IMG/VR virus record: IMGVR_UViG_3300006056_000038
Span: 1 to 64,000 of that record
DNA length: 64,000 nt
Reading direction: 5' to 3' (one strand)
Source: a virus
The first letter of the stretch is position 1; every line of letters begins with the position of its first letter. The notes beneath the pieces are model-generated. The model was not told the DNA's origin and did no database searches. It saw only the letters and a list, made by a program, of their open reading frames with translations. A program made the translations under genes and the position numbers. Of this stretch, positions 3,036-33,537 are shown piece after piece.

Positions 3036-3039
3036 ACCC

Positions 3040-3399
3040 ATGCCATTGACCAAACGTGATTTCGCCATGAAGAGGAACGATACGCTCCCCTCCTTGCGGT
3101 TGAACGTATTGGACCGTGGATGTTTGGGCCAGAGCGAACGCTTCGACATGACGGGCGCCACGGGCGTGACCTTCACCATGACGGACTCCTCGGGCAACTA
3201 CAAGATCGCAAAAAAGGACGGCATCATCGTTTCCTCCTCCGGGGGCACCATTCAATATGATTGGGACCAAGAGGACACCAACGAAGAAGGCATCTTCACG
3301 GCCGAGTTCCAGATCAACTACGCGGGCGGCGGGAGGCTCACTGTGCCGCAACAGGGGTTCCTGACCATTGAGATCTATCGGGACATAACGTTCGATTGA
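3040..3399 (+). CDS. Hypothetical protein (start chosen at the internal Met to avoid overlap)
   Basis: ORF 2983-3399; the second Met (MPLTKRDF...) follows the stop of the upstream gene. Confidence 0.4.
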   Translation: MPLTKRDFAMKRNDTLPSLRLNVLDRGCLGQSERFDMTGATGVTFTMTDSSGNYKIAKKDGIIVSSSGGTIQYDWDQEDTNEEGIFTAEFQINYAGGGRLTVPQQGFLTIEIYRDITFD

Positions 3400-5764: not shown

Positions 5765-7606
5765 TCATTTTGTTGCAGGCGTCCACGAGAAGCGCATATT
5801 ACCGCAATCCCAGATGCGGTCCATGCCGAGGAGTTGGGCGAGTTCCCATTCCTTCATGGAAAGCGCGTCCTCTATACTCATCAACTGGGCTTCCGCGACT
5901 TTTTTGGCAACGACATCTTTTCGATATTGGAATCGATGATGACGATTCCAATAGTTGCCTTTTTTGAAATACCAATAGTTGGGCTTACTGAAGCCTTCGA
6001 ATTTGAACCCGTTCTTGACATATACGGTTCTATCTGGATCGTTGCCGCTCCATCCTATGTCAGCGAACGTGGCTATTTCCTTTGGATTATGTTCAGTGAT
6101 GAAATACGACAGCAATTTCGAAAAAGCTCCCACCACATTATATCCGATTAGGCTGGAAAAACGTATCAACTCAAAAACTCCCTCCTTATCCTCCTTGGTA
6201 CCCAGCGCTCTTCGCCTTCCCCCGAAAGACATTGCCGATACGATCTCATTCTCGTACATGAGACCAAATGTAATTCTTGATGGGGCATCACCTTGTATGT
6301 GGTTTTTTTCGAAGAAGTCGCGCTTATCGACGAATTCCAATGGTACCACCCTGCATTTTCTGGCGCCCAATTTGACTTCACATATACCGATGGACGACAA
6401 TATTCTTGAGATTACCACATCCGGACGGTCCACTATTTCATCTTCGAATACATGGATCAATCTTAATCCACTCTCTTGCGCCATCTTGGTCTTCATCAAG
6501 TGGTATTCCTTTGTTTTACCTCCTCCACGTTCTGCATGATAGTAATTTCCGTTGAATTCTATCGCTATCCCATGGTCTTCCAACACAAAATCCAATTCAT
6601 ATTTCTTGATGTGTCTTCTGGAATTCTCTACGAATTTTATCTCTCTCTCAATCAATGCTTTTCTCAATGCGTTATGCGTCATTGGACTTGTTGGAGAAGG
6701 GAAGCATTTTCTACATATGGGAATGGTTGGACTACAGAATTTTCTCTTGAATTCATTGCTACAGACTAAGCATCGAAATTCATACTCTTTATATCCAATG
6801 CTATCTCTGAATCCAGTGAATTCACCCATGAGCTCTATGTCGTTCGCATTCAGTTGCTGTATCAATGCATACTGCTTTGTACTTTCTATTTTTGAGAACC
6901 ATGCTTCCGTCACCTTTGCTTTATATTCAGATGTTTGAGAATAATACTCCACACCATATCTCTCCTTCGATGTTTTTTTTGCCCTATCCAATATTTCTTC
7001 GCTCTTAAGCGGAACATCAACACCATAATTATTCATCAGGGTTTCCTTGGCTTTCTCCTGAAAATCCAACCGCTTCATTGCATGCGTCTCGCCATAAAGA
7101 TCCATCATTGTCTCTGCGGCCTTCTCTCTATTATTGTAGTTCTCATCCCCATGCACCTCTGATTTTGTTTCACGATTCTGGGGCATGTTGTTGTAATTCT
7201 CGTCCCCGTACTTCTCCAATTTCGTTGCCTTGATCTTTGCTGTTCTTTCATCTCCATGTTCATTCAGCGTATTACGCATGGCTTCCGCAGCCTTCTCTTG
7301 GATCTCCTTCACCATGAACGCGCTCTCCACTCCGTACTTCTCCAAGACCGCCTCCTTGGTTCGTTCCATGCGCGCGGCGATGTTCTCCGGACGTCCCTGC
7401 CAGTCCAAGCGGCATGGTTCGGAACAGAACCTGCGCTCGCGTTTGATGCGTTCTTCGAATTGGGTCGAACACACAGGGCACGTCCGGGTCTCGTAGGTCT
7501 TCCCTCGTTTTATTACGTTCGAGCATTCGCGTGAGCAGGTCTCGCTCTTCGGGAATTTCTTCGTTCCGCCGCATACGGCGCATCCATTTGTTATTTCATT
7601 TGACAT
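5765..7606 (-). CDS. Multidomain protein: N-terminal zinc ribbons, six tandem ~24-aa YG[VD]E..EK.KET repeats, and a Vsr/DUF559-like (PD-(D/E)xK) endonuclease-type domain; homing-endonuclease-like
   Basis: CAVCGG...CSRECSN and CPVCST...CSEPC zinc ribbons. Repeats KYGVESAFMVKEIQEKAAE / KYGDENYNNMPQNRETKSE / VHGDENYNNREKAAET / LYGETHAMKRLDFQEKAKET / NYGVDVPLKSEEILDRAKKT / RYGVEYYSQTSEYKAKVTE. YELDFVLEDHGIAIEFNGNYYH resembles the Vsr-like endonuclease core. Confidence 0.5.
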   Translation of the reverse strand: MSNEITNGCAVCGGTKKFPKSETCSRECSNVIKRGKTYETRTCPVCSTQFEERIKRERRFCSEPCRLDWQGRPENIAARMERTKEAVLEKYGVESAFMVKEIQEKAAEAMRNTLNEHGDERTAKIKATKLEKYGDENYNNMPQNRETKSEVHGDENYNNREKAAETMMDLYGETHAMKRLDFQEKAKETLMNNYGVDVPLKSEEILDRAKKTSKERYGVEYYSQTSEYKAKVTEAWFSKIESTKQYALIQQLNANDIELMGEFTGFRDSIGYKEYEFRCLVCSNEFKRKFCSPTIPICRKCFPSPTSPMTHNALRKALIEREIKFVENSRRHIKKYELDFVLEDHGIAIEFNGNYYHAERGGGKTKEYHLMKTKMAQESGLRLIHVFEDEIVDRPDVVISRILSSIGICEVKLGARKCRVVPLEFVDKRDFFEKNHIQGDAPSRITFGLMYENEIVSAMSFGGRRRALGTKEDKEGVFELIRFSSLIGYNVVGAFSKLLSYFITEHNPKEIATFADIGWSGNDPDRTVYVKNGFKFEGFSKPNYWYFKKGNYWNRHHRFQYRKDVVAKKVAEAQLMSIEDALSMKEWELAQLLGMDRIWDCGNMRFSWTPATK

Positions 7607-14377: not shown

Positions 14378-14623
14378 ATGCAAGAACAAACAATAGGCGA
14401 ACAGAGAGTGCGTACGGCGTTCAATCCGAGCTTGGAGGGCATCGTCGACCAGATCAAGCAGAAGTCGGCAGAGTTGATCAACATGTGCGAAAGTTTGAAA
14501 GAGCCGTATTCCGGGGTCCCAAGCGAAAAGAACCGTCTTTGTGCCATTGCGCAAACGGAATATGAATCGGCGTGCATGTGGGCGGTCAAGGCGGCAACAA
14601 CTCAATTACCGCCAAAGTCATAA
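14378..14623 (+). CDS. Hypothetical small protein
   Basis: 81-aa ORF, charged and helical. Confidence 0.3.
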   Translation: MQEQTIGEQRVRTAFNPSLEGIVDQIKQKSAELINMCESLKEPYSGVPSEKNRLCAIAQTEYESACMWAVKAATTQLPPKS

Positions 14624-14933: not shown

Positions 14934-15452
14934 TCAAAGATCGCTCCCCGGCATTTCCCTTCCCGGGTTCTTCACGACCTTCATGGTCACTTGAGGCGCC
15001 GTCCTGTCGTGGGTCCCGTCGATGTTCGCGACATATCCGGCATCATGCGCCATGGCTTGGGCGTGGATGATGAAATCACGGTCCACCAAGATCGTGAACT
15101 TCGTGTTTCCGAGCGCGCCCTTGAAGTGGACCTTGTCGCCCAATGCGTCGGCGAACATGTTCTCGGCCGCCGACAACGGTCCGGGCTTTTGGTAATGGGC
15201 CAAGAAATCGTACATCACGGTTTCCTCGTCCCCGCTCAGCGGTTCGTTGAATCGCTTCTCGTAGGCCGCCAAGGCGTAACGATAAACGGCCATCTTGTCG
15301 CTTCCATGTTCCAGCGAGAACTGATAGGTCCCCGCATCCTGCTGGGCGAACAAAATGAGCCCGTGCGCCTGAGGCGTCAATGCGCCGGTCGGGAATCGCA
15401 TGTTGCCGAGCTCTTCCGAGATGACGGTACGAATAAGAGAACGGACATCCAT
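14934..15452 (-). CDS. CTS-family protein (putative packaged/internal protein); paralogue of 16444-16956
   Basis: N-terminus MDVRSLIRTVISEE. The C-terminal part (EETVMYDFLAHYQK...) is similar to 16444-16956 (EEAVFYDFAAHYDK...). Confidence 0.5.
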   Translation of the reverse strand: MDVRSLIRTVISEELGNMRFPTGALTPQAHGLILFAQQDAGTYQFSLEHGSDKMAVYRYALAAYEKRFNEPLSGDEETVMYDFLAHYQKPGPLSAAENMFADALGDKVHFKGALGNTKFTILVDRDFIIHAQAMAHDAGYVANIDGTHDRTAPQVTMKVVKNPGREMPGSDL

Positions 15453-15456
15453 TGGT

Positions 15457-15479
15457 CATAAATAGCTCTCTATTTATGG
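15457..15479. promoter_or_regulatory. Palindromic motif CATAAATAG-ctct-CTATTTATGG in the divergent region
   Basis: Serves the start of 15452(-) (about 4 nt) and 15496(+) (16 nt). Confidence 0.5.
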
Positions 15480-15495
15480 CGAGACATCCACGCCC

Positions 15496-16443
15496 ATGAG
15501 CTTCATCATCACCGCCCGGAACCCCGCAGGAGAAATCTATTTCTATCCCGCCAGCGGACGATGGACTAAGGAATCCGACAAAGCCGCCATCTATGATGAC
15601 AAGGCGGAGGTGGACCGGGTCAGCGCGCAACTCCAACATCAATGGAAGGGTCTTACGTTGAAGGTCGAACCGTCCGCCAAGGTCCCGGGCGTGCAACTCA
15701 AACTTTCCGCCCTCTCCGAAGGTCTCCGCCAAGAGGTGAAAAAGCACATGAAGGAAGGGAAAGCGAAACTTTCCGCCATGCCCACAGACCTCAAAGAGCG
15801 CATCTTGAAGGAAACCGGCGAATGGGACAACAGCGATGAGGGTATGGTGGCTTGGAAAGAACAATTAAGGACCGACATCCTCGACATCATCGACGCCGTT
15901 GGGACCAGAATGGAGCTTGTCTCGGTCCATGGATTTGACGTCTATCAAGGACCGTACGCGTGGGTGAAGATCGACGGAAAGCCATACAAGGTATGGACGC
16001 AAGATGGGGACCTATGGATCGAGAAATACAAGGTCGACAACACGTCGATGCACGATAAGCTTCCCGGGTTCCAAGGGACGCCCGATGAGATCGCCCACAT
16101 GCTGTCGACCGATCACATGATGTCGAGCGAGTTCGGGCTCAATGAATTGCGTAATGAGATAAGCGGCGCAATAAAAGAGGGATTGGGAGGAACGATGCCA
16201 GCGGAGACGAAATCGCTATGGGCGGTCTTGGGGATCAAGGACATGAAGGAACTTCCTCAATCGCCAGCTCTACCGGAGATCATGCAAATGTTGCATGATA
16301 ACGGAATCACCGGACCCTTCAAGTACGGCAGGTTCGGTACCGACGGCTTGATTTACATAATGGGCAATGGCGGCAAGATCGGCATTGGATTGCATAATGG
16401 AAAACTCGAAGCCTTGTCCGCTGGTATGCTTTGGGACCTTTGA
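15496..16443 (+). CDS. Hypothetical protein carrying one copy of the KLSALSEGLRQEVKKHMKEGKAKLSAMP module
   Basis: 315 aa; the module is shared with 18069-19611. Confidence 0.5.
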   Translation: MSFIITARNPAGEIYFYPASGRWTKESDKAAIYDDKAEVDRVSAQLQHQWKGLTLKVEPSAKVPGVQLKLSALSEGLRQEVKKHMKEGKAKLSAMPTDLKERILKETGEWDNSDEGMVAWKEQLRTDILDIIDAVGTRMELVSVHGFDVYQGPYAWVKIDGKPYKVWTQDGDLWIEKYKVDNTSMHDKLPGFQGTPDEIAHMLSTDHMMSSEFGLNELRNEISGAIKEGLGGTMPAETKSLWAVLGIKDMKELPQSPALPEIMQMLHDNGITGPFKYGRFGTDGLIYIMGNGGKIGIGLHNGKLEALSAGMLWDL

Positions 16444-16956
16444 TCAGCGCATCTCCAGCTCCACCGGGGACACCACAAGGGCAATAGCGCCCAAGCTCTC
16501 CATGCGTTCGCCCGCGCGGCACCACCATCCGAATTGACGGACGCAATCCTTGGCTTGTTGCAATTGGTCGTCCTTCACCGAGACGATCATGAAGCGTTCG
16601 TAACAGGTCGGGTTGGCATCGACGCCGCCGTCGTAACCCCATAGGTCTCCGAATATCTTCTCGCCCATCCTCTTCCAATAACCATTGCCCTTGTCATAGT
16701 GGGCGGCGAAGTCATAAAAGACCGCTTCTTCGTCCTCTTGGTTGTCCGCAAGAGGGCTTCTTCCTTGATGGCGGAAGATGTCCAAGATCATGTCGAACAG
16801 CGCGCGTAGGTCGCCCTTCGTGTCGGACATCTTCTGGTCGCACGTGAACCTCGCGCCTTTGGCCCAATCGAGCATCTCGCGCGCCGTGCGCGTCTTTGCG
16901 CGGGAAGCCGTAAGGACAGCTTCCGTTATCATGGAGCGGATGAGGCGATGGAAGTT
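16444..16956 (-). CDS. CTS-family protein (start at the internal Met MNFHRLIRSMITE)
   Basis: Track ORF 16444-17133 overlaps the upstream gene. A Met at residue 60 gives an N-terminus matching the family and removes the overlap. Confidence 0.45.
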   Translation of the reverse strand, partial: NFHRLIRSMITEAVLTASRAKTRTAREMLDWAKGARFTCDQKMSDTKGDLRALFDMILDIFRHQGRSPLADNQEDEEAVFYDFAAHYDKGNGYWKRMGEKIFGDLWGYDGGVDANPTCYERFMIVSVKDDQLQQAKDCVRQFGWWCRAGERMESLGAIALVVSPVELEMR

Positions 16957-16970
16957 CATTCTAAGGCGGG

Positions 16971-18030
16971 TCAAGCCACGTAATGGGTCAACTCGAATGA
17001 GTTGTTCATGCCGTACACTTGAATATTGAGCGTCTTGTTCGCGGGCTTTCCATTGAAGGTCAGTCCAATGGCTGTCGAGAATGTATCCCCAACGGCAGGC
17101 TTTCCGGGTCCTGTCGTTATCTGGTTGAACCAATCCTGCTCGTCCACCACGAACCCCTTCTTCTCCGCCGTGTCCTTGGCGTGCTGAACGGCTGCGCTGA
17201 AGGTGGGAAAGTAGATGTTGGCGTTGTGCTTTGCGGAGTAAGCCTCTGCGTACACTTTTGTTGCCAAACCATCGAGGTCGGGTTTGCCCAATCTCGCCGG
17301 GTCATAGATGCCGCACTTGTAGCCTTCATGGTCATACACCGTGATCACCGATGTCCCATCGCGGACCTCGACCGCCCGGAACGTCAATGGTTCACCGTCT
17401 TCATCTTCATATCTCGACTTGTCCGTCAATAGTTGGGCCAGTTTGTTGGCATAATCGGTCGGAAGATGGATGGACAACTCCCGTACAGCATCCGAATTCT
17501 CCTCCATTACAGGCTCGGCCTCCAGTCCGTTATCGGCGTTCTGTTCGTCGCTCTTCAAGGCCGATACCATGCTCTTGGTCAACGCCCCATGGACCTCCGG
17601 CCCGAAGCGCTCCATAACACCGTTCCGCTCGCGCATGTCGAACAATTCGCCTCCGCACAGAAAGGCAAGGACGTTATCGAGCTTGAAGTTCCTGAAGCTT
17701 CCTTTGGCGGCCAAAGCCGCGTCCCCGGACTCCCTCTTGAGCTTGATGAAGACATTGGTGTCGTAGGCCGTCATCAGGTTGTTGTTCTGCAACTTGTTGG
17801 CTTGGGCGTCGGTCTTCTCGACGTCGCTGCGGATGTAAGCGGTCAAGCTCCTGCGGAAGGCCATGTGGCGCACCGTTCCGTCCTTCTTGACGAAGGCCAC
17901 GCTGATGGTGATGTTGCGCCTGTAGTAGTCCTTCACCTTCTGGGGCAGGTCGTCGAAGGTGAGGGCCGATCCTGAAATGCCTTCATAGGCTTCTTGGACC
18001 AATTTTCGGATGATGCGGCGGATATCCATG
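16971..18030 (-). CDS. CTS-family protein
   Basis: From MDIRRIIRKLVQEAYE (trimmed from the track start at 18059); 353 aa. Confidence 0.5.
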
Positions 18031-18034
18031 AACG

Positions 18035-18055
18035 TAAATAGAGCACTATTTATGT
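18035..18055. promoter_or_regulatory. Palindromic motif GTAAATAG-agca-CTATTTATG in the divergent region
   Basis: 3 nt upstream of the ATG of 18030(-) and 14 nt upstream of 18069(+). Confidence 0.5.
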
Positions 18056-18068
18056 TCAAACCTCATTC

Positions 18069-19611
18069 CATGTCGAAGCGCACCATCAAACTCTCCTCCC
18101 TCTCCGAGGGCCTCCGCAAAGAAGTCAAGAAGCACCTCAAGGAGGGAAGGACCAAGTTGGGTCAGATGCCTACTCGTCTGAGAAAACTTATTGAATCAGA
18201 GGCTTTCTATGGCACTGACTCTGACGAGTACAGACCGGATATGGAAAGTTCTTCCCGAGCCATCCCTAAGTTCACGCTGAAACCACGCAAAAATGCAGGC
18301 GAGTTTGAGGGGGAGAGCGGGCCATGGAAGGTGTGGATTTATACATATAACGATGGTAAGAAGTTCGGATGGACGCTACTCCATCGAGGCGAGTCTCTCG
18401 TTGGGGGAGAAGGGCATAGCTCGCTAAAGGCCGCTTGTAAGGCTGCGGAGAAAGAGGCGACACTAGATCGTTACCAGCACCTCAAGGAGGGCAGGACGAA
18501 GATGAGCCAGATGCCGCCGAAGCTGAAGCGGTTGATAGAGAATGAGACTGTAGGCAAAAAAGAATTCATTAAGAATTTAGGAAATGCTGGTGTTTATGGA
18601 AAGCCAGATATGTATTATGATCATTCTAAAAATATGGCTATAGCTGTTAATGTGTATGATAGGACAGGTCAAAAAACTGAAGATACATCGCCTCGATATC
18701 CATATCCATTACCTCAAGTCGCAGGCGTGACGCACCAAATCGATAAAGAAAACAGAGAGAAGTTTATGGATAAAAGATGCGAATGGTGTGTTTATAGCTC
18801 CGCACATTCCGAGTTAATTCACGAAATTGGAGTGCTACAAAACAACGGTCCATCAGCAACCAACGCTATGAATGCTAGAGCAAGCGATGATGAAGGTGGA
18901 TATTTTGAAGAACAAAAAACCATCAACCTCTCATCCCTCTCCGAGGGTCTCCGCAAGGAAGTCAAGAAGCACCTCAAGGAGGGCAGGACGAAGATGTCCA
19001 TGCTGCCATCTAAGTTGGCAAACAAGATCTTGATTGAGATGGAACATGACAGTTCAGGAAACCCCATTGCTCCTTGGGATAGAAAAGGACCCAAATCGCC
19101 TCATGGAAGTGATTTGCCGTATGTCCCTCATTCGCGCATCAACGCAGGAACCTATGATATAGATGGCGAATTTAGTAGCAGCGACGATATTGGCGATGAT
19201 GACAATTTCAATGTCAATGTCGATGATACTGAACTACTGAGCGCAATGGAGGATGCAAAAATGCAAAGCGAAAACGGATATGTCGTCCATGTGAACAAGT
19301 CACCAAAAGGCGACTACGAATTGAGCGACTGGTATGACGACGAATCGACTGTTGCAAGCTATGAAAATGGAAGAAAGCTCAACGAAAACAAACGTGCCAG
19401 CATGAAAAACAAGCAGATCAAACTCTCCTCCCTCTCCGAGGGCCTACGCAAGGAAGTGAAGAAGCACCTCAAGGAGGGCAGGACCAAATTGGGACAGATG
19501 CCGCCGAAGTTGGCAAACGAGATCTTGAGCGAAATGAATGACATGGGGTCACAATTTGATAGCTCAGGAAATCCCATTCTTCCTTGGGGAAGCAATGGTT
19601 CTAGCAAATAG
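18069..19611 (+). CDS. Modular repeat protein with four or more copies of KLSSLSEGLRKEVKKHLKEGRTK[LM][GS]QMP.KL
   Basis: Start MSKRTIKLSSL after the motif. Protein-level repeats at about residues 1, 140, 300 and 470. The underlying DNA repeats (about 18087, 18474, 18912, 19410) are roughly 85% identical. A second repeat, SSGNPI[AL]PW, is also present. Confidence 0.55.
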
Positions 19612-19713
19612 TTCCGTCGTTCATTGCTTTTTATGACAAAGAGCGACATTATTTTCCTTCTTCATGGACGGCACCGTTAGCGTGTTTGATGATATGGTGG
19701 ATGTTCTGGGTGA

Positions 19714-20013
19714 TCATACGCGCTGGCTCAGCGCGCCACGGATTATCGAGCGGAGGAACCGCTCGTTCACCACAGGGGTTCCCATCCGCTTTTGAACGGC
19801 GGCATCGTATTGTTGCTTGATGTTGTCGGAGGACATCTCGTATTGTTCGTCAGTCAATTTATGTCCACTCTCCGCCGTCTTCAACGCATACTGAAGTCGT
19901 ATGATAAAGGAACCTGCCCGTTCTGTACGACTCCAAAATGATCGATCGTACGAGGCGGCGTAATTCCATTGGCCATAAATATGGCCATATTTAGCTTTGA
20001 TGGACATTCGACG
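19714..20013 (-). CDS. Doubtful small ORF (would contain the 19973-19994 motif inside its coding sequence)
   Basis: Track ORF 19714-20073; low-complexity, W/Y-rich. Confidence 0.2.
   Translation of the reverse strand, partial: RRMSIKAKYGHIYGQWNYAASYDRSFWSRTERAGSFIIRLQYALKTAESGHKLTDEQYEMSSDNIKQQYDAAVQKRMGTPVVNERFLRSIIRGALSQRV
19973..19994. promoter_or_regulatory. Palindromic motif CCATAAATATGG-CCATATTTAG
   Basis: Perfect inverted repeat ending 5 nt before the ATG of 20000(+). Confidence 0.5.
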
Positions 20014-20632
20014 TATGATCAGGAACATCCTCTTGGAGGAAGCGTCCGGCATCGCCTTCGAAACGCAACACACGGCCAGCTATCACGGCCAGAGCAATTT
20101 CACGCTTCGTCTTCTGGCGAACGGAAGAGAGGTTGCGCATTTGGATTACACCATCTTTCAAGGCGAGACGCAGATCGCCATGGTGGAGGTCCCGCGTCCG
20201 GAGGACAAGCGAAAGGGATACGGCCGCATGCTGGTGGACCGCTTGGCGCAGGAGCGCGGCGGATACGATAAGATCCAATGGGGCTCCATGACCCCCGATG
20301 GCGCGGCGCTGCAACAGGCCATGGACCGCGAAAAGAACTTCGACCGGGAGGAGCACGAGAACCTGCATTATCGGCAAGAGGACATGATCGCTCTCATCTC
20401 GAAGAAAGGCAAGAACGCGGCCGGGTTCTTTCGGGACACATGCGCAATAGGATACGAGGCGGCATGGCAGAAATGGGCCGCCAACATCAAGGATTCCCAC
20501 ATTGACGGGATCGATCAGAGCGACCTCAGCGACCTAGCCGAATGGACGCGTGGATCGGTCGAGAACCATCATCCCAAGGATTGGGAACCTCAGGATTGGG
20601 TGCAGCGGTTCGTGGCGGAGTTGAGGGCTTGA
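20000..20632 (+). CDS. GNAT-family N-acetyltransferase with CTS-like N-terminus
   Basis: N-terminus MDIRRMIRNILLEE. Motif-A-like segment QIAMVEVPRPEDKRKGYGRMLVDRLAQERG (R-x-x-G-x-G). Confidence 0.55.
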   Translation: MDIRRMIRNILLEEASGIAFETQHTASYHGQSNFTLRLLANGREVAHLDYTIFQGETQIAMVEVPRPEDKRKGYGRMLVDRLAQERGGYDKIQWGSMTPDGAALQQAMDREKNFDREEHENLHYRQEDMIALISKKGKNAAGFFRDTCAIGYEAAWQKWAANIKDSHIDGIDQSDLSDLAEWTRGSVENHHPKDWEPQDWVQRFVAELRA

Positions 20633-20683
20633 TCGAGATCAAACCATTCCGGTTTGGATGGCATTATCGCCATATTTATGTAC

Positions 20684-21604
20684 ATGGATATCAAGAAGTT
20701 GATCAAGAACATGATAGCAGAGGTAGCGGGCGTGCAATTGAACGTAAAACGCCTGTCCGAGATAATGGCGGACGTGACCATTGACCATATTATATCAACC
20801 GCCCAAAAGAGAAAGGACATATTGGACGGGGAACATTGGAATGTTCCATTTGGATATGAACCACCAGCCATGATATCAGGAGACACATGGATAAGGACGG
20901 TCGAAGTGTCGGTCGAATTCTGCAACTCACCAAGGGAAGAGCCGACAGGGTCATTCCAATCCAGCAAGACCAAGAAGCACAGCAAGCCGGAGTCCTCCTA
21001 TTCCATATCCATAGGACTTGTTGTTCATGTTCCAATAGCGGAATTGAAGAACGAAAGAACAGCACTGCGATCGATATTCGCCCACGAGCTCAACCACGCC
21101 TTCGTGTTCATCCACGACGTGAACAAAAAGTCGGCCGTCTTGAACGCCAAAAACAGGCGCATTGGCGCAGCCTACAGCGAGGACCCCGGAGTCCAATTGT
21201 TGAATAAGGCCATCTACCTCTCCAACCCCATGGAGATACAAGCAAGAATTCAAGACATCGGCGGTCTGGTGGACGACTTGATGAGCACCACCGCAGAGGA
21301 CGCTCTTTCTGAGCTTCTATTGTACCAGCCGATGCGAGAGTTGTCAGAACTGAACAACATGGACTTCAGAAAGATCGAGCGCACGCAGGCCGTTCAGGAC
21401 TTCGCGCGCAAAATGGGCGGAGATGACGTTATGCAATTCATTTCGGACCTCAACAGAAAGCGCAAGACATCGGCATTCCAAGCCTTGAAGAAAGTCTATC
21501 GCCTCGTCTCGGACCGATACAGCGTCAACGAGGAGTTCTGGATCGATGCCGAAGCGTATAGCATCATCCATGAGAGCGATTGGCCGCCGAGGGAACTCCT
21601 ATGA
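20684..21604 (+). CDS. HExxH zinc-metallopeptidase-like protein with CTS-like N-terminus
   Basis: N-terminus MDIKKLIKNMIAE. HExxH motif in IFAHELNHAFVFIHD. CATATTTATG motif (20671-20680) 3 nt upstream. Confidence 0.5.
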   Translation: MDIKKLIKNMIAEVAGVQLNVKRLSEIMADVTIDHIISTAQKRKDILDGEHWNVPFGYEPPAMISGDTWIRTVEVSVEFCNSPREEPTGSFQSSKTKKHSKPESSYSISIGLVVHVPIAELKNERTALRSIFAHELNHAFVFIHDVNKKSAVLNAKNRRIGAAYSEDPGVQLLNKAIYLSNPMEIQARIQDIGGLVDDLMSTTAEDALSELLLYQPMRELSELNNMDFRKIERTQAVQDFARKMGGDDVMQFISDLNRKRKTSAFQALKKVYRLVSDRYSVNEEFWIDAEAYSIIHESDWPPRELL

Positions 21605-23008
21605 GGACTTTTCCTTCTTTTCGCCAAGCAATTTGTCCAGCACGGCCCTGCCCTCATCCGTTGAGGCCATGCCCGTCAGCATACCGGCGATGTCGACGCC
21701 TCCGCCCGGATTGAACATCCCCATAATGCCCTTCACGCTGCCGGGGATGTTCCCGCCGCTCCCCACGATCTTGATATCGGCTTTCTCCAGCGCTACCGCC
21801 ATTGCCTTTCCTACAACTTCGTTGGCCTCTACCTGACGGTTGTCGATCAAGTATTTCTGGTATTCTGGAGATCCAGCGATCTTCTCGGCCAACTTGATCT
21901 GAGCGTCCACTGGAGCCATCAGCTTCGCCTTCTCGGCCTCTCCCTCCGCCTTGCCTTTAGCGGCAATGCCCTCGGCGTTCTTGAGCGAAGCGAACAGCAT
22001 GCCTTCGGCCAACGTCTGAGTGGCGGCCTTTTCGCCGTCCGCCTTTACCGTCATCACCTCCTTCTCTTGTTGGGCGTTCACCACCGCAACGTTCTTGTTT
22101 TGTTCCGCCAACACTTCAGCGGCCTTCTTGCTGATCTCCGCCTTGCGGACGGTGTTGATGGATAGCACCTCCATCTCCTTTACCGTCGTGATGGCCGTCT
22201 GTTCCTGCACGGACTGTGTGGCCTTTTCCTTTGCGATGCCTATCTCCCGCACCCGCTCAGCCTCACGAATACCAACAGCTTGTAATGCCTGTTGGTCTTG
22301 AATGTCGATCTCGCGTTTGGCCGATATCTCCGCAAGCTTTGCGATACGACCGTGATCGGCCACCTGAACGCGGCTTTCTTGATCGATGCGCGCCTGTTCC
22401 TTGGCCATGATGTTATGGATGACGTTCGACTTCTGTTCCGTAGAATCCCGCAGGTCCATGAACTCGATCATCTTGACGGTCTGAACGCCCCACTCCTTGA
22501 TGTTGTCGTCTACTTCGTCGGTGAACTGCTTCCCCAAGGTGGAACGTTGATGCATGATCTCCTCCAATTGATTGGTAGCGAGGATCCGGCGGACGGCACC
22601 TTGCAACACGGAATGCAATTGCGTTTCCAATTCCCTGAAAGATGCCACCCGCTGCGCGGCGGTATCGGAATTCGCTATCCTGAAGAATGCGGATACATCC
22701 ACCACGAACGGAAGTCTGGCCGAATCGTAAGCTTCATAATTCGCAAGGCTGACCTGAAAGACACTTTCAGGCATCTCAACTTTGGTCACACCAATAATGG
22801 GGAACCACGTAGGCCATTCATAATAGACGTTCCCGCTATCCCTTCCTCGTCCATACGAGGTGGTCTTTTTGCCCGTCTGCACGATGTGGACCGTGTTGGT
22901 CGGGACCACGCGGCGCAAAAAGAGAGCGGAAAAGAGCCCGATGGCGAGGGCGATAACGCCGATCACAATGAGGATGGTCGGCCAATTGGAGAATAGGTTC
23001 TGTATCAT
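21599..23008 (-). CDS. SPFH/band-7 (flotillin/prohibitin-like) membrane protein
   Basis: N-terminal TM helix (WPTILIVIGVIALAIGLFSALFL), then SPFH-type core and a long Ala/Glu/Lys coiled-coil tail (AEISKKAAEVLAEQNKNVAVVNAQQEKE...). Confidence 0.65.
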   Translation of the reverse strand: MIQNLFSNWPTILIVIGVIALAIGLFSALFLRRVVPTNTVHIVQTGKKTTSYGRGRDSGNVYYEWPTWFPIIGVTKVEMPESVFQVSLANYEAYDSARLPFVVDVSAFFRIANSDTAAQRVASFRELETQLHSVLQGAVRRILATNQLEEIMHQRSTLGKQFTDEVDDNIKEWGVQTVKMIEFMDLRDSTEQKSNVIHNIMAKEQARIDQESRVQVADHGRIAKLAEISAKREIDIQDQQALQAVGIREAERVREIGIAKEKATQSVQEQTAITTVKEMEVLSINTVRKAEISKKAAEVLAEQNKNVAVVNAQQEKEVMTVKADGEKAATQTLAEGMLFASLKNAEGIAAKGKAEGEAEKAKLMAPVDAQIKLAEKIAGSPEYQKYLIDNRQVEANEVVGKAMAVALEKADIKIVGSGGNIPGSVKGIMGMFNPGGGVDIAGMLTGMASTDEGRAVLDKLLGEKKEKSS

Positions 23009-23081: not shown

Positions 23082-25880
23082 TCATTGGTTGGAAGTTTGT
23101 TTATTGCATGTGATCAATGCCTGTCTTTTTTCCTGACCTCCACTACGCATGTAATGCGACTTCTTCACACCATAGTACTCTGTTGAAACAATGGTGAACC
23201 CTGCGTTCAACAGGCAATGAGAAAGTTCAACGACATACTTCTCGTTCATATCCAGAACCATCTTTCCGCTCGTCTTCAGATAGGCATGACAGTTTACAAG
23301 GACGGGGAGTAATTCCTTTGCGAACCATGTCTGGGTGTCCAAACCTTTTGGAGTTTCGCTATACGAATACAGTTCATCGTAATAGAAAGGAGGAGATGTG
23401 AAGATGAAATCCACCCTCCCCTTCAAACTCTCTTGGTACACCTTGGAGTCACCGAATGTCACCGTGCAATTCTTCAGGTCCTTTTCCTTGATGATGCGTT
23501 CATATCCATCCTTAAGATGGAGGTTTATGTCATTGCCGACGTAATGTGCTCCTCGTTCGCAGCAAGCGAGCATGCGGCTGCCCCAGCCAGCATATGGGTC
23601 ATACACCACATCGTCGTATTGCACATTGTTCTGATATACGCCCCTTGCTTGCTCGATAGGGAATACCCCCACGTTGTACACGGTTCTCACCGCAATACCG
23701 CGATACAACTGCATGATGGAGACATCGAACAGCTCCTTCTTCTTGTTCAGCCCCAGACGGTACTTCACCACTTCCCTTAAAACACCCTTGTCTTGAAATA
23801 TGTCAAATAACCCCTTCTCTCTCTTATGAGAACGATAATAGGAATCGGCGAACACGCCTTTCAACCACGATACTGTAGTGGGTCTCTTCGATAGATCGAT
23901 ACAATCCTTTATGTACTTCTCCGGAGGGTAGAACGTGGTCCAGAATTCCAGAAGAGTGTCAACTAGATCTTCATTCTTCAGCATCTCATCTCTGCCTCTT
24001 TCGCAATACTCCTTGCTGAATATTATGTCATGCTCTTTAAGGCGCAACAGCGGATGGTCTTGAAGATTGATTTCGTATCTATCCAAGAATGTGATCAAGT
24101 CATTCTCTGAATTGAATTTTTGTGGCGCATGCTGCTTCACGTCTTTCTCACGAATGCGGTAAAGGCGATAGCCGCTTTCTTTTGCTACTTCGTCTTTCTT
24201 GACGTCACGGACGAAATTCAATATCTGCTTGAAATGATATCCTCCCTTGCTGACATATCCGTGCCAGTAATCCCCATCCAATTCTATCAATATCTTCCTG
24301 TCTTCCAAGCACCAATCGAACATGAACTTACCAACAGATTTCTGCTTCCGTATTCCTTGAAGTTCGCAAGTGGCTTCACGGAATGCTCGTTCCAGTTTGT
24401 TCTCCTTATATGTCTGCTTGGTTTTGTTGTACAATATGGCGGTATCTGACATTTTCTTCGATGTCGTACTGTTGAATATGCCCTTAGCTCCATACTTCTC
24501 TTTGTACATCGTATGGTCCATACCATGGACTGCCAAATGTGTTTGGGTTATGGCTCTCAATTTCTCTCCACAAACACCACACTCTACCCAATTTTGAGGA
24601 TTGACCTGCATGTCGATTGCGTTCGCCTTTTTCTGTTCGATACGCTCAAGCTCTGTTTTGAATAGCAGGCTTTCTTCTTCATGAATTTTCACGTGTTCCT
24701 CTACTGTAAGGTTATGCACACTTACAATGTGTGTGGTATACCATCCGCTGGCATTTGAGAGATCATTGGTGGTCCAATCGCAGTACGCGCATTTCCTCTT
24801 TTCTTGTACAACATTATCTACTTCATTGAAATCGAAATGTTCGTAGTACCACGGCTTTCCTGTGGTCTTGAAAAACTCGCGCTTCTTTGTGTTGGTCTCA
24901 TGCTCCATATCGGGCATTATCCTCTCAAGGTGCCTCGTTATGATGCCGGATGCATTCAAGTAATCAGGAAAACGTTCTCCGGTCTGCCTACAAATCGCCA
25001 CATAATTCTTCCCTTCTTCGAAGAAGGATGGCATCCCCTTCTTGTCGAAACGGATGTTCTGCTTGGCTTTTTCTGACCTCAAACGTTTGTACTCCTCAAG
25101 GCGCTCATGTTTGTTGGGCCAATCCTCCAACGGAGGGAATGGAACGAACATGTTCCACTCCATAAGCACGCGATGAATGAGACTTGAGCTCATACCGACC
25201 GCTTCTTCCAGCGCGCGCATGGAAAGGCCGTCCTCCAAATATCCTTTCTTGATGACCGTGAACTGCGCTTCGGTGATCTCCGCGCGTGGCTGATACTGAT
25301 ATGTGCGCGCCTCCTTTGGCTGCGGTTGGATGAATTCGAAGTGGTCCACGAACCATGGTCGCCCTTGTTCGGTTTGGAACTTCTTCTTTTTGAAGTCGCT
25401 CTGGTCCGCCATGGGGACCCTCAGTTTTCTCAAATGTGCCGTAAGGGCCCCGGATGCGTTACGGAAGTCATCAAACTCCTTTCCTGTGGCCTTACATACG
25501 GCCACATACTCGACGCCCGGTTTGAAGAACGGTGCGGGCACGGTAATGAGAGGGTTACCGTGATTCCATTTCCTGTCGCGCTCTTCATCGGAACCATCGG
25601 CGCCAACATATAACCCAACCTCTTGAAGTGTTTTCGTACACCACATGAGGCTTCGCCCCATTTCGGTCGCCATCCGACTCAATGGTAATTTGTCTTTCAG
25701 ATGTAAACGGGCCAGATTCAGGATGTCCTCCGATGTGGCTTCTACTTTTTTGATGCTTCCTCCCATGCAACAAAGGTAGTACATCAATTCATATATTCCA
25801 AATTTGCCGAATGACTTTACTCCATCTAAAGGAATTATGACGATCTTTCTTGAAATATAACAAAAGAGAAAGGCGACCAT
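23082..25880 (-). CDS. Fusion protein: triplicated Cys-motif DNA-binding repeats + Vsr/DUF559-like endonuclease domain + C-terminal DNA (N6-adenine/N4-cytosine-type) methyltransferase
   Basis: Three repeats of C..TG..F.D..NASG..T.HL (VCKATGKEFDDFRNASGALTAHL, ICRQTGERFPDYLNASGIITRHL, CAYCDWTTNDLSNASGWYTTHI). RKILIELDGDYWHGY matches the Vsr-like PD-(D/E)xK core. The MTase segment has motif I VVYDPYAGWGSR and motif IV FIFTSPPFYYDEL. Confidence 0.65.
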   Translation of the reverse strand: MVAFLFCYISRKIVIIPLDGVKSFGKFGIYELMYYLCCMGGSIKKVEATSEDILNLARLHLKDKLPLSRMATEMGRSLMWCTKTLQEVGLYVGADGSDEERDRKWNHGNPLITVPAPFFKPGVEYVAVCKATGKEFDDFRNASGALTAHLRKLRVPMADQSDFKKKKFQTEQGRPWFVDHFEFIQPQPKEARTYQYQPRAEITEAQFTVIKKGYLEDGLSMRALEEAVGMSSSLIHRVLMEWNMFVPFPPLEDWPNKHERLEEYKRLRSEKAKQNIRFDKKGMPSFFEEGKNYVAICRQTGERFPDYLNASGIITRHLERIMPDMEHETNTKKREFFKTTGKPWYYEHFDFNEVDNVVQEKRKCAYCDWTTNDLSNASGWYTTHIVSVHNLTVEEHVKIHEEESLLFKTELERIEQKKANAIDMQVNPQNWVECGVCGEKLRAITQTHLAVHGMDHTMYKEKYGAKGIFNSTTSKKMSDTAILYNKTKQTYKENKLERAFREATCELQGIRKQKSVGKFMFDWCLEDRKILIELDGDYWHGYVSKGGYHFKQILNFVRDVKKDEVAKESGYRLYRIREKDVKQHAPQKFNSENDLITFLDRYEINLQDHPLLRLKEHDIIFSKEYCERGRDEMLKNEDLVDTLLEFWTTFYPPEKYIKDCIDLSKRPTTVSWLKGVFADSYYRSHKREKGLFDIFQDKGVLREVVKYRLGLNKKKELFDVSIMQLYRGIAVRTVYNVGVFPIEQARGVYQNNVQYDDVVYDPYAGWGSRMLACCERGAHYVGNDINLHLKDGYERIIKEKDLKNCTVTFGDSKVYQESLKGRVDFIFTSPPFYYDELYSYSETPKGLDTQTWFAKELLPVLVNCHAYLKTSGKMVLDMNEKYVVELSHCLLNAGFTIVSTEYYGVKKSHYMRSGGQEKRQALITCNKQTSNQ

Positions 25881-25924: not shown

Positions 25925-27565
25925 TTAGTAGGTGTTGATGTTGTCGATGTACACTACACCGTAGAAGCGGTTGTTGACCATCTTCTTAGCATACCTTGTC
26001 ATGATCCCCTTACGCGGAGTAAAGTCATTCGGATCATAGATCGTCTGCGTCAATTGCAGCGGGATGTATGGGGCGTAGATGTAACCAGCCTCCAAGAAGG
26101 TGTTACCCTTGTGACCCAACAGCACGATCTGCGCAGGCAGGTACGGATCCTTGTAGACCACGTAACGGCTACCCAACTGACCGATCTTCTCGATACCGAG
26201 GTTGTACTTCTCCGACTCAGGGGAAGCACTGCCATCGACGTGGAAGTATTCCAGATCATCGAAGATCGCACCGGCCTCAGCCGAGCACACGATCCAGTTC
26301 GCACCACCTCTCAAGGTTGCCTTGTGGATCTGGGCGCTGAGCTCGTTCACACGGGTGATCAGCGTTTGGTTCCAGTCCTTTTGGGTACCGAAGAAGTTCG
26401 CGTTGTTCTGGAGACCTTGGTAGTCCCAACGAGCACGGAAAGGTGCGCCGTTGATGAGGTCCGTCAGGATCTCGCGGTCGATCTCAGCAGCAACGTGCTC
26501 GGAGAGAAGAGCGGTCAGCTCAGCCTCGGCATCAATGCTGTGGTAGGCCTCAAGATCTTGGGCCAATTCAGGGGTCCAGTGAGCGCGGAGCTTACGGGTC
26601 ACGGTGTTCACGGTCACGCTGGAGAAGCGGATCGAGATCTCGGACATTTCACCCTTCGCTTCCAAGTCGTTGTAGACCTCGAATGCAGGAGTGACGGTCA
26701 GGGCGAACTGAGTACCGAAGTTGGTACCGTTGTTCAACATCGCGGAGTTGAAGTCCGAACCGTAAACGCTCGGTGGACGAAGGTCCAACACGATGTTCGA
26801 GGTGGAACCTTGGAACTGGTCGGTTCCCCATGCTTGCACGTTCGCGAACACAGGAACGCTTCCGCCAGCGGCAACGAGCAGGATGTTGCTCGATCCAGCG
26901 CTGTAGTAGATAGCGGTGGTCGAGGAGTACCTCAAGGAAGCAGAAGACTGCTGCTTGGAGGTGTCGAAGCCCGTGAGGGTGAAAGCACCCGGATCGTACA
27001 AACCATTGCTGAAGCTGTCAGCGGAGAAGGTCTTGGAAACGCCAAGAGCCGTTTCGCCCGTACCGAAGGACAGATCGAAACCACGGTTGTTGTAGAAACG
27101 CTCGTAGGCAGAGGTGTCCGCGAACACAGGGCCACCTTGACCGTTCGCGGTATTCTTGGGGTTCACCTTGTTCATGCGTGCGATTTCCTGAGCACGCGTG
27201 ATCGACGTGTCGAAGGTGTTGTCACTACCGTTGAACGATACACGCGCGTCCATGTAGAACAACAGACCGGTAGGGAGCGCCAAAGGCTGCACCGAAACCA
27301 GTTCATTGGCCAACAGACGCGAGAATACGCGACGAACGATAGGGAACGCCACCGTATCGAAACGTCCAGCGGACGCGTCGAGGGTTACCTCGTTCAGCAT
27401 CGAAGCAGCCTGCGACTCCAGCAACTGCGCGATGTTGGAACGCTTGGGTCCCTTCAGGCCTTTGAGCAGGCCAGACTCCTCCCAGTTCGCAACGATAGCG
27501 TTGCGCTGTTCTGCGAGGTTCTTCAAAGTGGTAAGGCCGACCTTACCGGTTCTGAGTAATTCCAT
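25925..27565 (-). CDS. gp23: Major capsid protein, T4 gp23-like
   Basis: 546 aa. RRVFSRLLANELVSVQPLALPTGLLFYMD aligns with T4 RRAIPNLIAFDICGVQPMNSPTGQVFALR. ELAQDLEAYHSIDAEAELTALLSEHVAAEIDREILTDLI aligns with ELAQDLRAVHGMDADAELSGILATEIMLEINREVVDWI. AGYIYAPYIPLQLT aligns with AGIYYAPYVALTPL. Confidence 0.85.
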   Translation of the reverse strand: MELLRTGKVGLTTLKNLAEQRNAIVANWEESGLLKGLKGPKRSNIAQLLESQAASMLNEVTLDASAGRFDTVAFPIVRRVFSRLLANELVSVQPLALPTGLLFYMDARVSFNGSDNTFDTSITRAQEIARMNKVNPKNTANGQGGPVFADTSAYERFYNNRGFDLSFGTGETALGVSKTFSADSFSNGLYDPGAFTLTGFDTSKQQSSASLRYSSTTAIYYSAGSSNILLVAAGGSVPVFANVQAWGTDQFQGSTSNIVLDLRPPSVYGSDFNSAMLNNGTNFGTQFALTVTPAFEVYNDLEAKGEMSEISIRFSSVTVNTVTRKLRAHWTPELAQDLEAYHSIDAEAELTALLSEHVAAEIDREILTDLINGAPFRARWDYQGLQNNANFFGTQKDWNQTLITRVNELSAQIHKATLRGGANWIVCSAEAGAIFDDLEYFHVDGSASPESEKYNLGIEKIGQLGSRYVVYKDPYLPAQIVLLGHKGNTFLEAGYIYAPYIPLQLTQTIYDPNDFTPRKGIMTRYAKKMVNNRFYGVVYIDNINTY

Positions 27566-27593: not shown

Positions 27594-28967
27594 TCAATCT
27601 TGGTCAGGAGCATCGAGACCCGCGAGTACACGGTTCCGTTTTGCTTCAGCACTTTCGTAAATAGGCTGCTTTTTTGGTTGTGCCACTGGAATGGCGGAGG
27701 ATTTGATCACACCCTTGTCTTTTGGCATGCTCTTTTCGCTGATGATCTCTTTGTAGATGCGCTCAGCTTCCTCTGCACTCGTTGCGGCTTCGAAGCGTTC
27801 GGAGATCCGAACCTTCTCCTTTTCCGTCAAGCCCCCATTGGATACCACGCGGTATGCAAGCGCCAACTTCTTGTTGAACGTCTGCACCTCGTTGTAGTGC
27901 TCCCGGAGTTCGATGAAGGCGCTTTTGAATTCGCCTATCTGACCCTTCAAACTTTTGTTTTCCTTCTTTAGCTCGGCGATGATCGCCTCATGGTGAGCTT
28001 CTTCTTTCTTGGTATTCTCGTTCACTGCACCCGTGCGGGTACGGTTGTCAACGGCCACCTTGGGCGCGGTGTGCGGTCCTGCGGTGCGGTTGACGGTATG
28101 CGATTGACCCATGGCCTTTACTTCGTCCACGAGCGCTTCGTCCTCTTCCATTTCGAGTTCGATGAGATCATCGTCCTCGTCCAGCTCGATCATTTCCTCC
28201 ATGGCAGGGGCCATTTCAGGGGCGGGCGCTGGAGCTTCTGCGGCAGGAGCAACAGCTCCGGCCTCGTCGTCCACGATGTCCACTTCGTCACCATCGCTGG
28301 TGGGAGCGGCGCCGGTCTGTTGGGCGATCATCTTCTTGATGACGTCCGCCAACTGGGCGGTGAGATCTTCTTGGGGAGCAGCTTCTGGAGCCACCTCAGG
28401 TGCAACCTCTGGGGCTGGAGCTGGGGCGGCTTCTGGAGCGGCGGGTGCGGGTTGTTCCATGTTGGGTTGTGTTTGTTCTTCTTCCGCAGTGATCTGGATC
28501 TCATCCTCATCGGAGGAGAGCTCGATCTGCTCGTCATCGCCCACCGCATCAACAGCGACGGGAGTAGGTGCGACTGACGTAGGCGCCACCGGAGCGGCAG
28601 GAGTGGCATCGACCGGGGTCTGGGTAACGGCGTCGACGGGGGTCTCGGGGACCTCACCGGCTTCGGGTTCCTTGAATTCGTTCTTGATGGAACCATCGTC
28701 GTCGATCGTCACCTTCTGGGTGTCGGTCTCCACCTTGATGGTCTCCGAAACGATCTCAACGGGGACCTTCGTCTCTTCGACGGGCTCCTCGTTGTTCACT
28801 TCATCGATGGCATCTTCGACCAATCGTTGGATCCTCTCTTGGTTCTCCTTGAGAAGATTGTCCTGAGCCAGCTTGACGATGGAGTCGATGTCCACCTTTG
28901 CTTGTTGAAGAATATTCTTTTCCTTGCTCATATCGCTGATCTTCGATTTTGAATAAATAATGCACAA
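27594..28967 (-). CDS. Scaffolding/prohead core protein (gp22-like by position), acidic coiled-coil with a Pro/Ala/Glu low-complexity region
   Basis: Sits between the protease and MCP genes as in T4 (21-22-23). Very acidic, with the AAPEAAPAPAPEVAPEVAPEAAP repeat region and coiled-coil ends. Antisense ORFs here (e.g. 28111-28866+) are repeat artefacts. Confidence 0.55.
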   Translation of the reverse strand: MCIIYSKSKISDMSKEKNILQQAKVDIDSIVKLAQDNLLKENQERIQRLVEDAIDEVNNEEPVEETKVPVEIVSETIKVETDTQKVTIDDDGSIKNEFKEPEAGEVPETPVDAVTQTPVDATPAAPVAPTSVAPTPVAVDAVGDDEQIELSSDEDEIQITAEEEQTQPNMEQPAPAAPEAAPAPAPEVAPEVAPEAAPQEDLTAQLADVIKKMIAQQTGAAPTSDGDEVDIVDDEAGAVAPAAEAPAPAPEMAPAMEEMIELDEDDDLIELEMEEDEALVDEVKAMGQSHTVNRTAGPHTAPKVAVDNRTRTGAVNENTKKEEAHHEAIIAELKKENKSLKGQIGEFKSAFIELREHYNEVQTFNKKLALAYRVVSNGGLTEKEKVRISERFEAATSAEEAERIYKEIISEKSMPKDKGVIKSSAIPVAQPKKQPIYESAEAKRNRVLAGLDAPDQD

Positions 28968-30811: not shown

Positions 30812-30830
30812 ATTATCTGAAGTGTTTGCC

Positions 30831-30873
30831 CTATAAATAGAGAAGGGCTCTGCATTTCCGCAGAGCCCTTCTC
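30831..30873. promoter_or_regulatory. CTATTTATAGG motif (30831-30840) plus a perfect 14-bp-stem hairpin (30840-30873) between the HEG and protease genes
   Basis: GAGAAGGGCTCTGC-atttcc-GCAGAGCCCTTCTC; an A7 run follows on plus and a T7 run precedes on minus. Confidence 0.5.
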
Positions 30874-33495: not shown

Positions 33496-33537
33496 TTACA
33501 CATAAATAGCCTCCTTTCCCGAAGGAATTGATTATCT

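Follow-up and report, generated by a model that had tools for sequence, protein, structure and literature searches.

A shared N-terminal peptide on unrelated proteins of an uncultured T4-superfamily phage: a candidate capsid-targeting propeptide

Why do six open reading frames (ORFs) of one phage, most of them coding for proteins with no detectable relation to each other, begin with the same kind of short peptide? They lie in a 64,000-nt window of record IMGVR_UViG_3300006056_000038 (by the window we mean this whole stretch), which comes from an uncultured myovirus of the T4 superfamily with tail sheath, tail tube and a gp23-like capsid protein. A first-pass annotation made from the sequence had pointed out six ORFs with a common start, and the ORF listing confirmed all of them. 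In T4, the protease gp21 cleaves after Glu in (L/I)-x-E, and the capsid-targeting sequence (CTS) is an N-terminal propeptide of 10-19 residues (PMC9026906, PMC5694885). We consider it probable that the peptide described here, 13-14 residues long and called the leader below, is a capsid-targeting propeptide removed by a gp21-type protease and the functional equivalent of the T4 CTS. Novel here are the sequence of the label, the cargo and the lineage of the phage, on a mechanism already known from T4; since the principle is textbook T4 biology, the finding is an extension and no surprise. The six genes are as follows (a slash marks the predicted cut).

Gene A, 14934-15452, minus strand: 172 aa, N-terminus MDVRSLIRTVISE/E, leader encoded at 15414-15452; predicted mature start ELGNMR...; paralogue of B, with no assignable cargo function.
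Gene B, 16444-16959, minus strand: 171 aa, N-terminus MNFHRLIRSMITE/A, leader encoded at 16921-16959; predicted mature start AVLTASR.
Gene C, 16971-18029, minus strand: 352 aa, N-terminus MDIRRIIRKLVQE/A, leader encoded at 17991-18029; predicted mature start AYEGISGSALTFDDLPQK.
Gene D, 20000-20632, plus strand: 210 aa, N-terminus MDIRRMIRNILLE/E, leader encoded at 20000-20038; predicted mature start EASGIAFETQH....
Gene E, 20684-21604, plus strand: 306 aa, N-terminus MDIKKLIKNMIAE/V, leader encoded at 20684-20722; predicted mature start VAGVQLNVK.
Gene F, 3399-4409, plus strand: 336 aa, N-terminus MQHLRRLIRTTILE/M, 14-residue leader encoded at 3399-3440; predicted mature start MAMTGPK; the start codon of the gene overlaps the stop of the preceding neck/tail-module gene (TGATG).

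The leaders follow the consensus M-(D)-Φ-(R/K)-(R/K)-Φ-I-(R/K)-x-Φ-Φ-x-E (Φ, hydrophobic), with basic residues at positions 4, 5 and 8, hydrophobic residues at 3, 6, 7, 10 and 11, and Glu at 13. They are 13 aa long, or 14 aa in F, stand directly after the ATG in every case, and end in ISE, ITE, VQE (in C), LLE, IAE and ILE. The first-pass description of these peptides as near-identical was overstated, since their pairwise identity over the 12 residues following Met is 33-58%; the strict shared pattern stands. When all six reading frames of the 64 kb were scanned with a regular expression derived from the leaders, it matched their six sites and no others, all of them post-ATG, with 0.012 chance matches expected from composition and a mean of 0.005 in 200 shuffles; the pattern was built post hoc, and these figures illustrate it and are no formal test. 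The pattern and its N-terminal position are direct observations. Gene calls on nine independent metagenome contigs with the locus gave products of 352, 171, 172 and 210 aa, as here, and placed the start of E two codons further upstream (MYMDIKK). Gene B starts 11 nt past the stop of C and is therefore probably co-transcribed with it.

Does this likeness reflect a function of the peptide or simply common descent of the DNA? If it were a remnant of ancestry, the six genes would be diverged tandem paralogues, or a recombination or regulatory cassette would reach into their coding regions, and the peptide would be functionless. Such an origin would accommodate the paralogy of A and B and the palindromic upstream element common to four of the genes (see below), which is reminiscent of the mobile promoter cassettes that occur in T4-type genomes. 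The codons speak otherwise. Identical residue pairs among the leaders use different codons in 46 of 77 cases, and DNA identity is 0.38 at third codon positions versus 0.62 at positions 1 and 2; the leader is thus conserved as a peptide and not as DNA, its synonymous sites being scrambled and its residues kept. On this codon evidence a DNA-level repeat or promoter cassette was rejected as the cause of the likeness, in agreement with the first-pass annotation. After removal of the leaders, A and B were the only related proteins (34% over 59 aa, E = 4e-5) and no relation was detected in any other pair of the six, as expected from the earlier claim that the downstream domains are unrelated bar one paralogous pair. 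Moreover, F lies 10 kb off and lacks the upstream element, D (GNAT fold) and E (modelled as a β-sheet followed by helices) are not visibly paralogues, and the same leader class stands on other cargo in distant, AT-rich phages. We therefore regard a functionless remnant as very improbable.

Is a protease of the appropriate type encoded by this phage? The head module of the window contains three relevant genes.

Prohead protease, 28988-30811, minus strand: T4 gp21 family (Peptidase_S77, E = 8.6e-26).
Acidic protein, 27594-28931, minus strand: isoelectric point (pI) 4.3, 99 D+E residues, in the position of the T4 gp22 scaffold between the protease and capsid genes.
Major capsid protein, 25925-27565, minus strand: gp23-like (PF07068 Gp23).

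The family assignment bears out the gp21-like protease recognized in the first-pass annotation. The enzyme harbors a 393-aa intein of the LAGLIDADG type (residues 87-479), located directly past the catalytic-His motif ELDHPD and before a Cys; the spliced protein, with residues 1-86 joined to 480-607, aligns with T4 gp21 and lacks none of the residues at its conserved His, Ser and Asp motifs. We presume it to be the enzyme removing the leaders. In the capsid protein, the predicted propeptide sites AQLLE/S and SMLNE/V align with AKIFE/N and SFLTE/A of T4 gp23; the Φ-x-E rule thus appears to apply in this phage as well (FLTE/A against MLNE/V), and the alignment argues for a conserved protease specificity. 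The acidic protein gave no family match in profile searches and is presumed, from its position and composition only, to be the scaffold or core that the leaders bind. As the protease gene is split by the intein, head maturation would depend on protein splicing. Just upstream of the protease gene, the ORF 30894-32081 (minus strand) is almost entirely intein-like, 51% identical to the protease intein; it lacks a terminal Asn, has only a few residues on either side, and may represent an intein copy that stands free or has decayed.

Does the leader behave as a unit of its own in other phages? Comparisons of this kind (orthologues, swapped leaders and leaderless homologues) form the core of our case, which is argued from sequence. 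Orthologues of D begin with MDLRRLIREAIQE, MDIRRLIRAVLRE, DLRDLIRSIIRE and NLRAIIRSIVLE, those of E with MDIKKIVQQTIAE, MDIKKVVQEIVTE and MNIKDFLRRLIAE, and those of F with MKQVRSIIRSMLLE and MIHLRNIIREYINE, and the HExxH protein of the IMG/VR locus L087, 21% identical to E, starts with MDIRRIIREVLSE. The D, E and F orthologues have kept the leader, which diverges as much as the cargo. One D-family fusion protein has its own N-terminal leader plus an internal ...KLNE/INGGG right before the D domain, and in the closest relative (L001) an A-like gene with the leader MRLRSIIRRMLAE adjoins the capsid gene.

About 100 metagenome proteins contain the first cargo domain of C, which there follows leaders of at least six unrelated classes, namely MDIRxxIRxxxxE, (N)EELxRMKKL(A/S)GL(I/L)xE, MKIxITESQLKRLIxE, MDNFDLKRFLVENKMTRNSRLLNE, MRKIDKKLN..LxE and MYKNF...KPLNE, and in nearly all of them a Φ-x-E end lies a few residues ahead of the domain. 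It also follows internal 'ΦxE/GG' linkers in multi-domain proteins and occurs leaderless (MLTFDTLPDKVK...), and the second C domain is found as a stand-alone protein behind MNERKRNMKLAGIKE/S. The family of the C-terminal domain of F has 543 matches with E <= 0.001 in a metagenome-derived protein library. Many distant F homologues carry T4-type leaders (MKTFNQFLKE, MKTFKPFLAE, MKRFTQFLTE, MKKFIEFIKE), and one such gene lies on a 161-kb contig beside three more genes starting with MK(R/H)F..(F/Y).(L/I).E. The T4 proteins IPII and IPIII begin with MKTYQEFIAE/A and IPI with MKTFKEF...ITE/A (NC_000866), and MKTYQEFIAE is an experimentally defined CTS (PMC9026906). With T4-like leaders on F-family cargo elsewhere, the present leader takes the place of lookalikes of the T4 signal. 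In leaderless F homologues (P0116, P0118, P0119, P0122, P0123), the start corresponds to F residues 17-24 and falls shortly after the predicted cut. This modularity is a direct observation and supports the leader as a movable module across phages.

Could the peptide be an amphipathic helix with some other role, such as membrane or protein localization, a degradation or stability tag or an oligomerization handle, in which the Glu is incidental? Its mean hydrophobic moment is about 0.66 compared to 0.37 in shuffled versions, and its net charge of 0 to +2 makes it basic, like many membrane-binding helices; in addition, a membrane-anchored SPFH protein is encoded beside the cluster, and the cleavage of the leader is itself a deduction. 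Such a role would leave the fixed Φ-x-E end without a purpose, although this end is common to all six leaders, to their orthologues and to unrelated leader classes on homologous cargo. It would also not account for T4-type CTS-like leaders substituting on F-family homologues, nor for leaderless F homologues starting a few residues beyond the predicted cut. Reading the RR-containing N-terminus as a Tat or Sec signal was rejected, as the leaders have no hydrophobic core of >=10 residues and no AxA site, and polar or acidic residues follow them immediately. For these reasons another role of the helix appears quite improbable to us.

If the leader is a capsid-targeting propeptide, the following course can be proposed. 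The six genes would be expressed alongside the late genes, and the basic amphipathic helix would dock each protein on the scaffold or core of the assembling prohead. Once the shell is complete, the gp21-family protease would cut after Glu13 (Glu14 in F) at Φ-x-E, and the freed cargo would remain in the head and probably pass into the host together with the DNA upon ejection. Of the six putative cargo proteins, one has a GNAT fold, one an HExxH motif and one two domains, and the other three are without assigned function. The results support every computationally checkable part of the first-pass interpretation, which had suggested a suite of packaged and injected enzymes. For no more than a few model phages is it known which proteins are carried in the capsid into the host along with the DNA, and a label ending in a protease site would permit the prediction of packaged proteins from metagenomes in a large uncultured T4-like clade. 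A packaged GNAT enzyme and a packaged HExxH protein would follow as concrete candidates, as would new targeting peptides for loading foreign proteins into capsids.

What, then, would the cargo be? The AlphaFold model of protein D (predicted local distance difference test, pLDDT, 86) comprises a GNAT-fold domain at about aa 18-110 followed by a helical C-terminal domain, and the leader forms a separate low-confidence helix at residues 3-15 (pLDDT <50 at 11-13) ahead of the well-predicted domain. In Foldseek searches against the PDB, its top matches were all GNAT enzymes (GCN5, PCAF, RimI, AAC; probability 1.0, E ~2e-3), and in the acetyl-CoA loop RKGYGR the residues G73, Y74, G75 and R76 are invariant in seven homologues. 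According to the model, D has a GNAT fold. The earlier assignment of D as a GNAT acetyltransferase is therefore backed by the fold and the acetyl-CoA loop and not by the best Pfam match (FR47, 17.8 bits), which is below the cut-off of 22.1; no NCBIfam match and no PDB sequence match were obtained for this protein. Protein E, previously proposed to be an HExxH metallopeptidase, has the motif HELNH at residues 134-138, in which H134, E135 and H138 are invariant in six sequences including the 21%-identical L087 protein; the motif thus holds, and its predicted model, a β-sheet then helices, had no fold match. Protein C combines a widespread 'FVKKDGTVRHM' domain (about aa 23-170) with a second domain starting LSIHLPTDY, which is preceded by a possible internal site AVRE/L. 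Searches of the six proteins against Pfam, PHROGs and NCBIfam returned sub-threshold matches only, except for C (phrog_2267, unknown function), and sequence comparison with the PDB gave no meaningful match for A, C, D, E or F; A, B, C and F had no function assignable from sequence searches of family and structure databases.

Two divergently transcribed neighbors of the leader genes, G and H, share a repeated module.

Gene G, 15496-16443, plus strand: 315 aa, divergent from A; the H module occurs once inside it, around residues 68-105.
Gene H, 18070-19611, plus strand: 513 aa, transcribed away from C; residues 1-13 (MSKRTIKLSSLSE/G) form a divergent leader.

The start of H has the length of the leader, its Arg4 and its Glu13. 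The module is about 40 aa long and has three LxE sites (IKLSSLSEGLRKEVKKHLKEGRTKLxQMPxKLxxxILxE); four copies are found in H (one partial, the first holding the N-terminus) and one in G, with DNA copies 63-88% identical to the reference copy, and none was found in IMG/VR by protein search or with a degenerate DNA pattern. By its sequence, H may be a polyprotein substrate that is cut into several pieces. Could the leader-bearing proteins in general be prohead-targeted and processed components of the core, scaffold or assembly machinery, which are degraded, expelled or kept as internal structural proteins, and not injected enzymes? Repeated modules with several LxE sites, as in G and H, are typical of proteins cut small, and F is located among neck and tail genes. 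In contrast, the fold of D is that of an enzyme and its acetyl-CoA loop is intact, E retains the invariant HExxH, and each protein has one predicted site, N-terminal as in T4's internal proteins and in Alt. The gene set also differs between near-identical phages, which fits accessory cargo better than an essential scaffold. A core or scaffold role is thus unlikely, and all three alternatives considered here are less well supported than a capsid-targeting propeptide.

Are the leader genes regulated together, and how stable is the locus? Upstream elements were located as follows.

Palindrome ATAAATAG-N4-CTATTTAT, 15458-15477: between the divergent genes A and G.
Similar elements: 18034-18053 (between C and H, palindromic), 19975-19994 (upstream of D) and 20671-20679 (upstream of E).
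Further sites of the CTATTTAT motif: 30826-30833 and 33502-33509.

The motif CTATTTAT, whose reverse complement is ATAAATAG, is close to the T4 late promoter TATAAATA and is found 11-31 nt upstream of many structural-gene starts; the genes concerned include those for the tail tube, the scaffold and the protease as well as A, C, D, E and G. Window-wide, ATAAATA has 19 occurrences on both strands versus about 8 expected. We conclude that CTATTTAT is likely a late-promoter element, and its presence at both groups of genes suggests that the leader genes are co-regulated with late genes. The locus is mosaic between otherwise near-identical contigs, with an HSP20 gene replacing B and A and the methyltransferase region swapped. 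Such a hypervariable leader locus resembles the internal-protein hotspots of T-even phages (PMC12373910).

How does this arrangement compare with known systems? The T4 system (IPI, IPII, IPIII and Alt, with gp21) also has a short N-terminal propeptide on unrelated proteins (10-19 aa, 13-14 here), a hydrophobic-x-Glu end, and hydrophobic residues at i, i+3 and i+4 before Φ-x-E (Y4, F7 and I8 in T4; I3, L6, I7, Φ10 and I11 here). The S77 protease family, the gp23-like capsid protein, the acidic protein in the scaffold position and the variable accessory loci are common to both. Unlike in T4, the leader here is one helical turn longer, the predicted cargo proteins are for the most part acidic and of enzyme size, an intein interrupts the protease, and the host is probably no enterobacterium. 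Where they can be aligned, the capsid protein shares no more than about 24-34% identity with its counterparts in cultured T4-like phages. The CTS-like genes of T-even phages are read as encoding injected anti-restriction proteins in the work of Repoila et al. (1994), as related in PMC12373910 and PMC9026906. As described there, they too were recognized by a shared N-terminal signal on unrelated small ORFs of a hypervariable locus; that signal is of the T4 type and from close T4 relatives, whereas the present one belongs to another sequence class.

In the giant phages phiKZ, 201phi2-1 and SPN3US, S80 proteases cut propeptides at (A/S/G)-x-E, and the paralogues gp53 and gp54 have an identical N-terminus (PMC5694885). 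There, head-internal or ejection proteins are likewise processed after Glu by a distant gp21 relative, but the propeptides are mostly >100 residues long with a small P3 residue (A, S, G), which is hydrophobic here, and the present protease is a plain S77 enzyme close to gp21 and not S80. A short tag that brings unrelated enzymes into an HK97-fold shell is also known from encapsulin cargo-loading peptides. These tags are mostly C-terminal, are not removed and involve neither scaffold nor protease, so that the likeness would be one of analogy only.

What speaks against a capsid-targeting propeptide? Beyond the Φ-Φ-x-E end the leader has no similarity to MKTYQEFIAE, and its net charge is 0 to +2 compared to -1 for the T4 signal. 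T4 internal proteins are small and basic, whereas five of the six cargo proteins here are acidic (pI 5.3-5.8; F, 8.8). The hydrophobic-x-Glu end, which the first-pass annotation had matched to the (L/I)xE rule, follows it in five leaders; C has Val and not Leu/Ile at P3, and Φ-x-E has a low information content in any case. The protease must splice out its 393-aa intein before being active. The same cargo also has homologues without a leader, which means that packaging is not needed by these domains in every case. In two contigs, L083 and L085, where HSP20 replaces A and B, the E leader MDIKKFIRNIISE is kept (L083 ~7230-7300, minus strand, corresponding to window positions 20684-20730), and a 1-nt deletion just after it puts it out of frame with the E cargo, for which a pseudogene, a frameshift or an error in the assembly may account. 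Several leader classes are present in the single genome of Flavobacterium phage immuto (see below), so that no simple one-phage-one-label rule holds. Finally, packaging, cleavage, injection and an anti-defence role are all derived here from the sequence of an uncultured phage. All these points weigh against the reading we favor, which we still hold to be the probable one.

Is the leader confined to this phage? A degenerate DNA pattern for the leader retrieved eight IMG/VR loci, about six of them with convincing N-termini. The locus L094 has five adjacent leader genes (MKGLIRKILKE, MKSLIKKILKE, MKNLIKKILTE, MRKLIKRILSE and MDIRKVIRKVLSE), and L087 has three in an array. The core motif was matched 41 times in 80 capsid-related loci, 12 times beside an N-terminal Met, compared to about one estimated for an even spread. 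The L094 protein at 2714-4054 (plus strand), which starts MKNLIKKILTE/..., continues with ...QPTGNSCGPTCLKMVHDF, a papain/C39-type cysteine peptidase-like motif, and may by its sequence represent a further class of packaged enzyme.

In cultured phages, Methylophilales phage Melnitz has a run of genes starting with MKKFSEIIE/A, MKNFKNHIAE/E and MQGFKTFLSE/A. Phage immuto (NC_055915) combines the starts MKKSQLRQIIKE, MKKSELVKLIKE, MENFDLKKFLVENKLTTNSKILKE and MKKQILSEQFRRMQKLAGIITE in one genome, with gp080, gp094 and gp095 starting MKKSQLRQIIKE..., MKKSQLREIIRKE... and MKKSELVKLIKE..., respectively. Multiple labels can thus coexist in one phage, which weakens the notion of leader classes that are each tied to a single phage lineage. 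Searches for C- and F-family homologues in cultured phages gave weak partial matches only (Melnitz; Microcystis phage Mwe-JY26). The literature searched reported no CTS beyond the T-even, giant-phage and P1 systems and contained no report of immuto proteomics.

We tentatively propose, as a plausible idea that we would not yet count on, that a very large branch of the T4 superfamily, most of it uncultured, has several interchangeable address labels at its disposal, among them the leader. If so, the packaged and injected arsenal of a phage could be read straight from its sequence; for the present phage it would include the GNAT acetyltransferase, the HExxH protein and polyprotein H, whose label-plus-cleavage modules would be cut in the head. 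Examples of label classes are MDIRRxIRxxIxE, NEELKRMKKLAGLIxE, MKIxITESQLKRIIxE, MxNFDLKxFLVENK...LLxE and the T4-type MKTFxxFLxE. Two further products of the window carry such motifs.

37060-37986, plus strand: 308 aa, starting MKVSDEQLGTIIANKIKE/S, similar to the class MKIxLSEQQLRRIIQE, with CTATTTAT upstream; judging by this start it may be an additional packaged protein with a different label.
4438-5028, plus strand, just after F: 196 aa, starting MDNTLNDQRREQLIE/RALQLHE/Q, with an Ala/Gly/Asn-rich middle and ending ...AECQRMQKLAGLITE/SED; here the motif 'RMxKLAG(I/L)xxE' is C-terminal, and the same motif is an N-terminal leader in other phages.

Where does the phage stand among its relatives? 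Megablast of the locus against cultured phages gave no nucleotide match, and the nearest cultured capsid proteins are those of Microcystis phage Mel-JY01 (43% over 62% of the query) and immuto (45% over 44%). Relatives in IMG/VR have capsid identities of 63-91% and contigs of up to 518 kb. A tblastn search of the six cargo proteins against the 80 capsid-related IMG/VR loci gave three weak matches only, indicating that the gene order around the capsid gene is not conserved. A Shine-Dalgarno-like sequence precedes one of 39 gene starts; the host is therefore probably no enterobacterium, and this points to, for example, Bacteroidota.

Three further genes adjoin the leader cluster or lie between it and the capsid gene.

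14378-14623, plus strand, beside A: 81 aa with an Acb2/Tad1 hairpin domain (43.1 bits, cut-off 27) and no leader; this family comprises sponges for cyclic-oligonucleotide immune signals.
21599-23008, minus strand, adjoining E: SPFH/Band 7 (flotillin-like) protein with an N-terminal membrane helix, absent in L083 and L085.
23082-25880, minus strand: 932-aa ORF with a DNA-methyltransferase C-terminus and DUF559/HNH-like and ROS/MucR-like segments.

The slot of this last ORF holds quite different genes in sister contigs, which marks the interval from the capsid gene to the leader cluster as a swap site.

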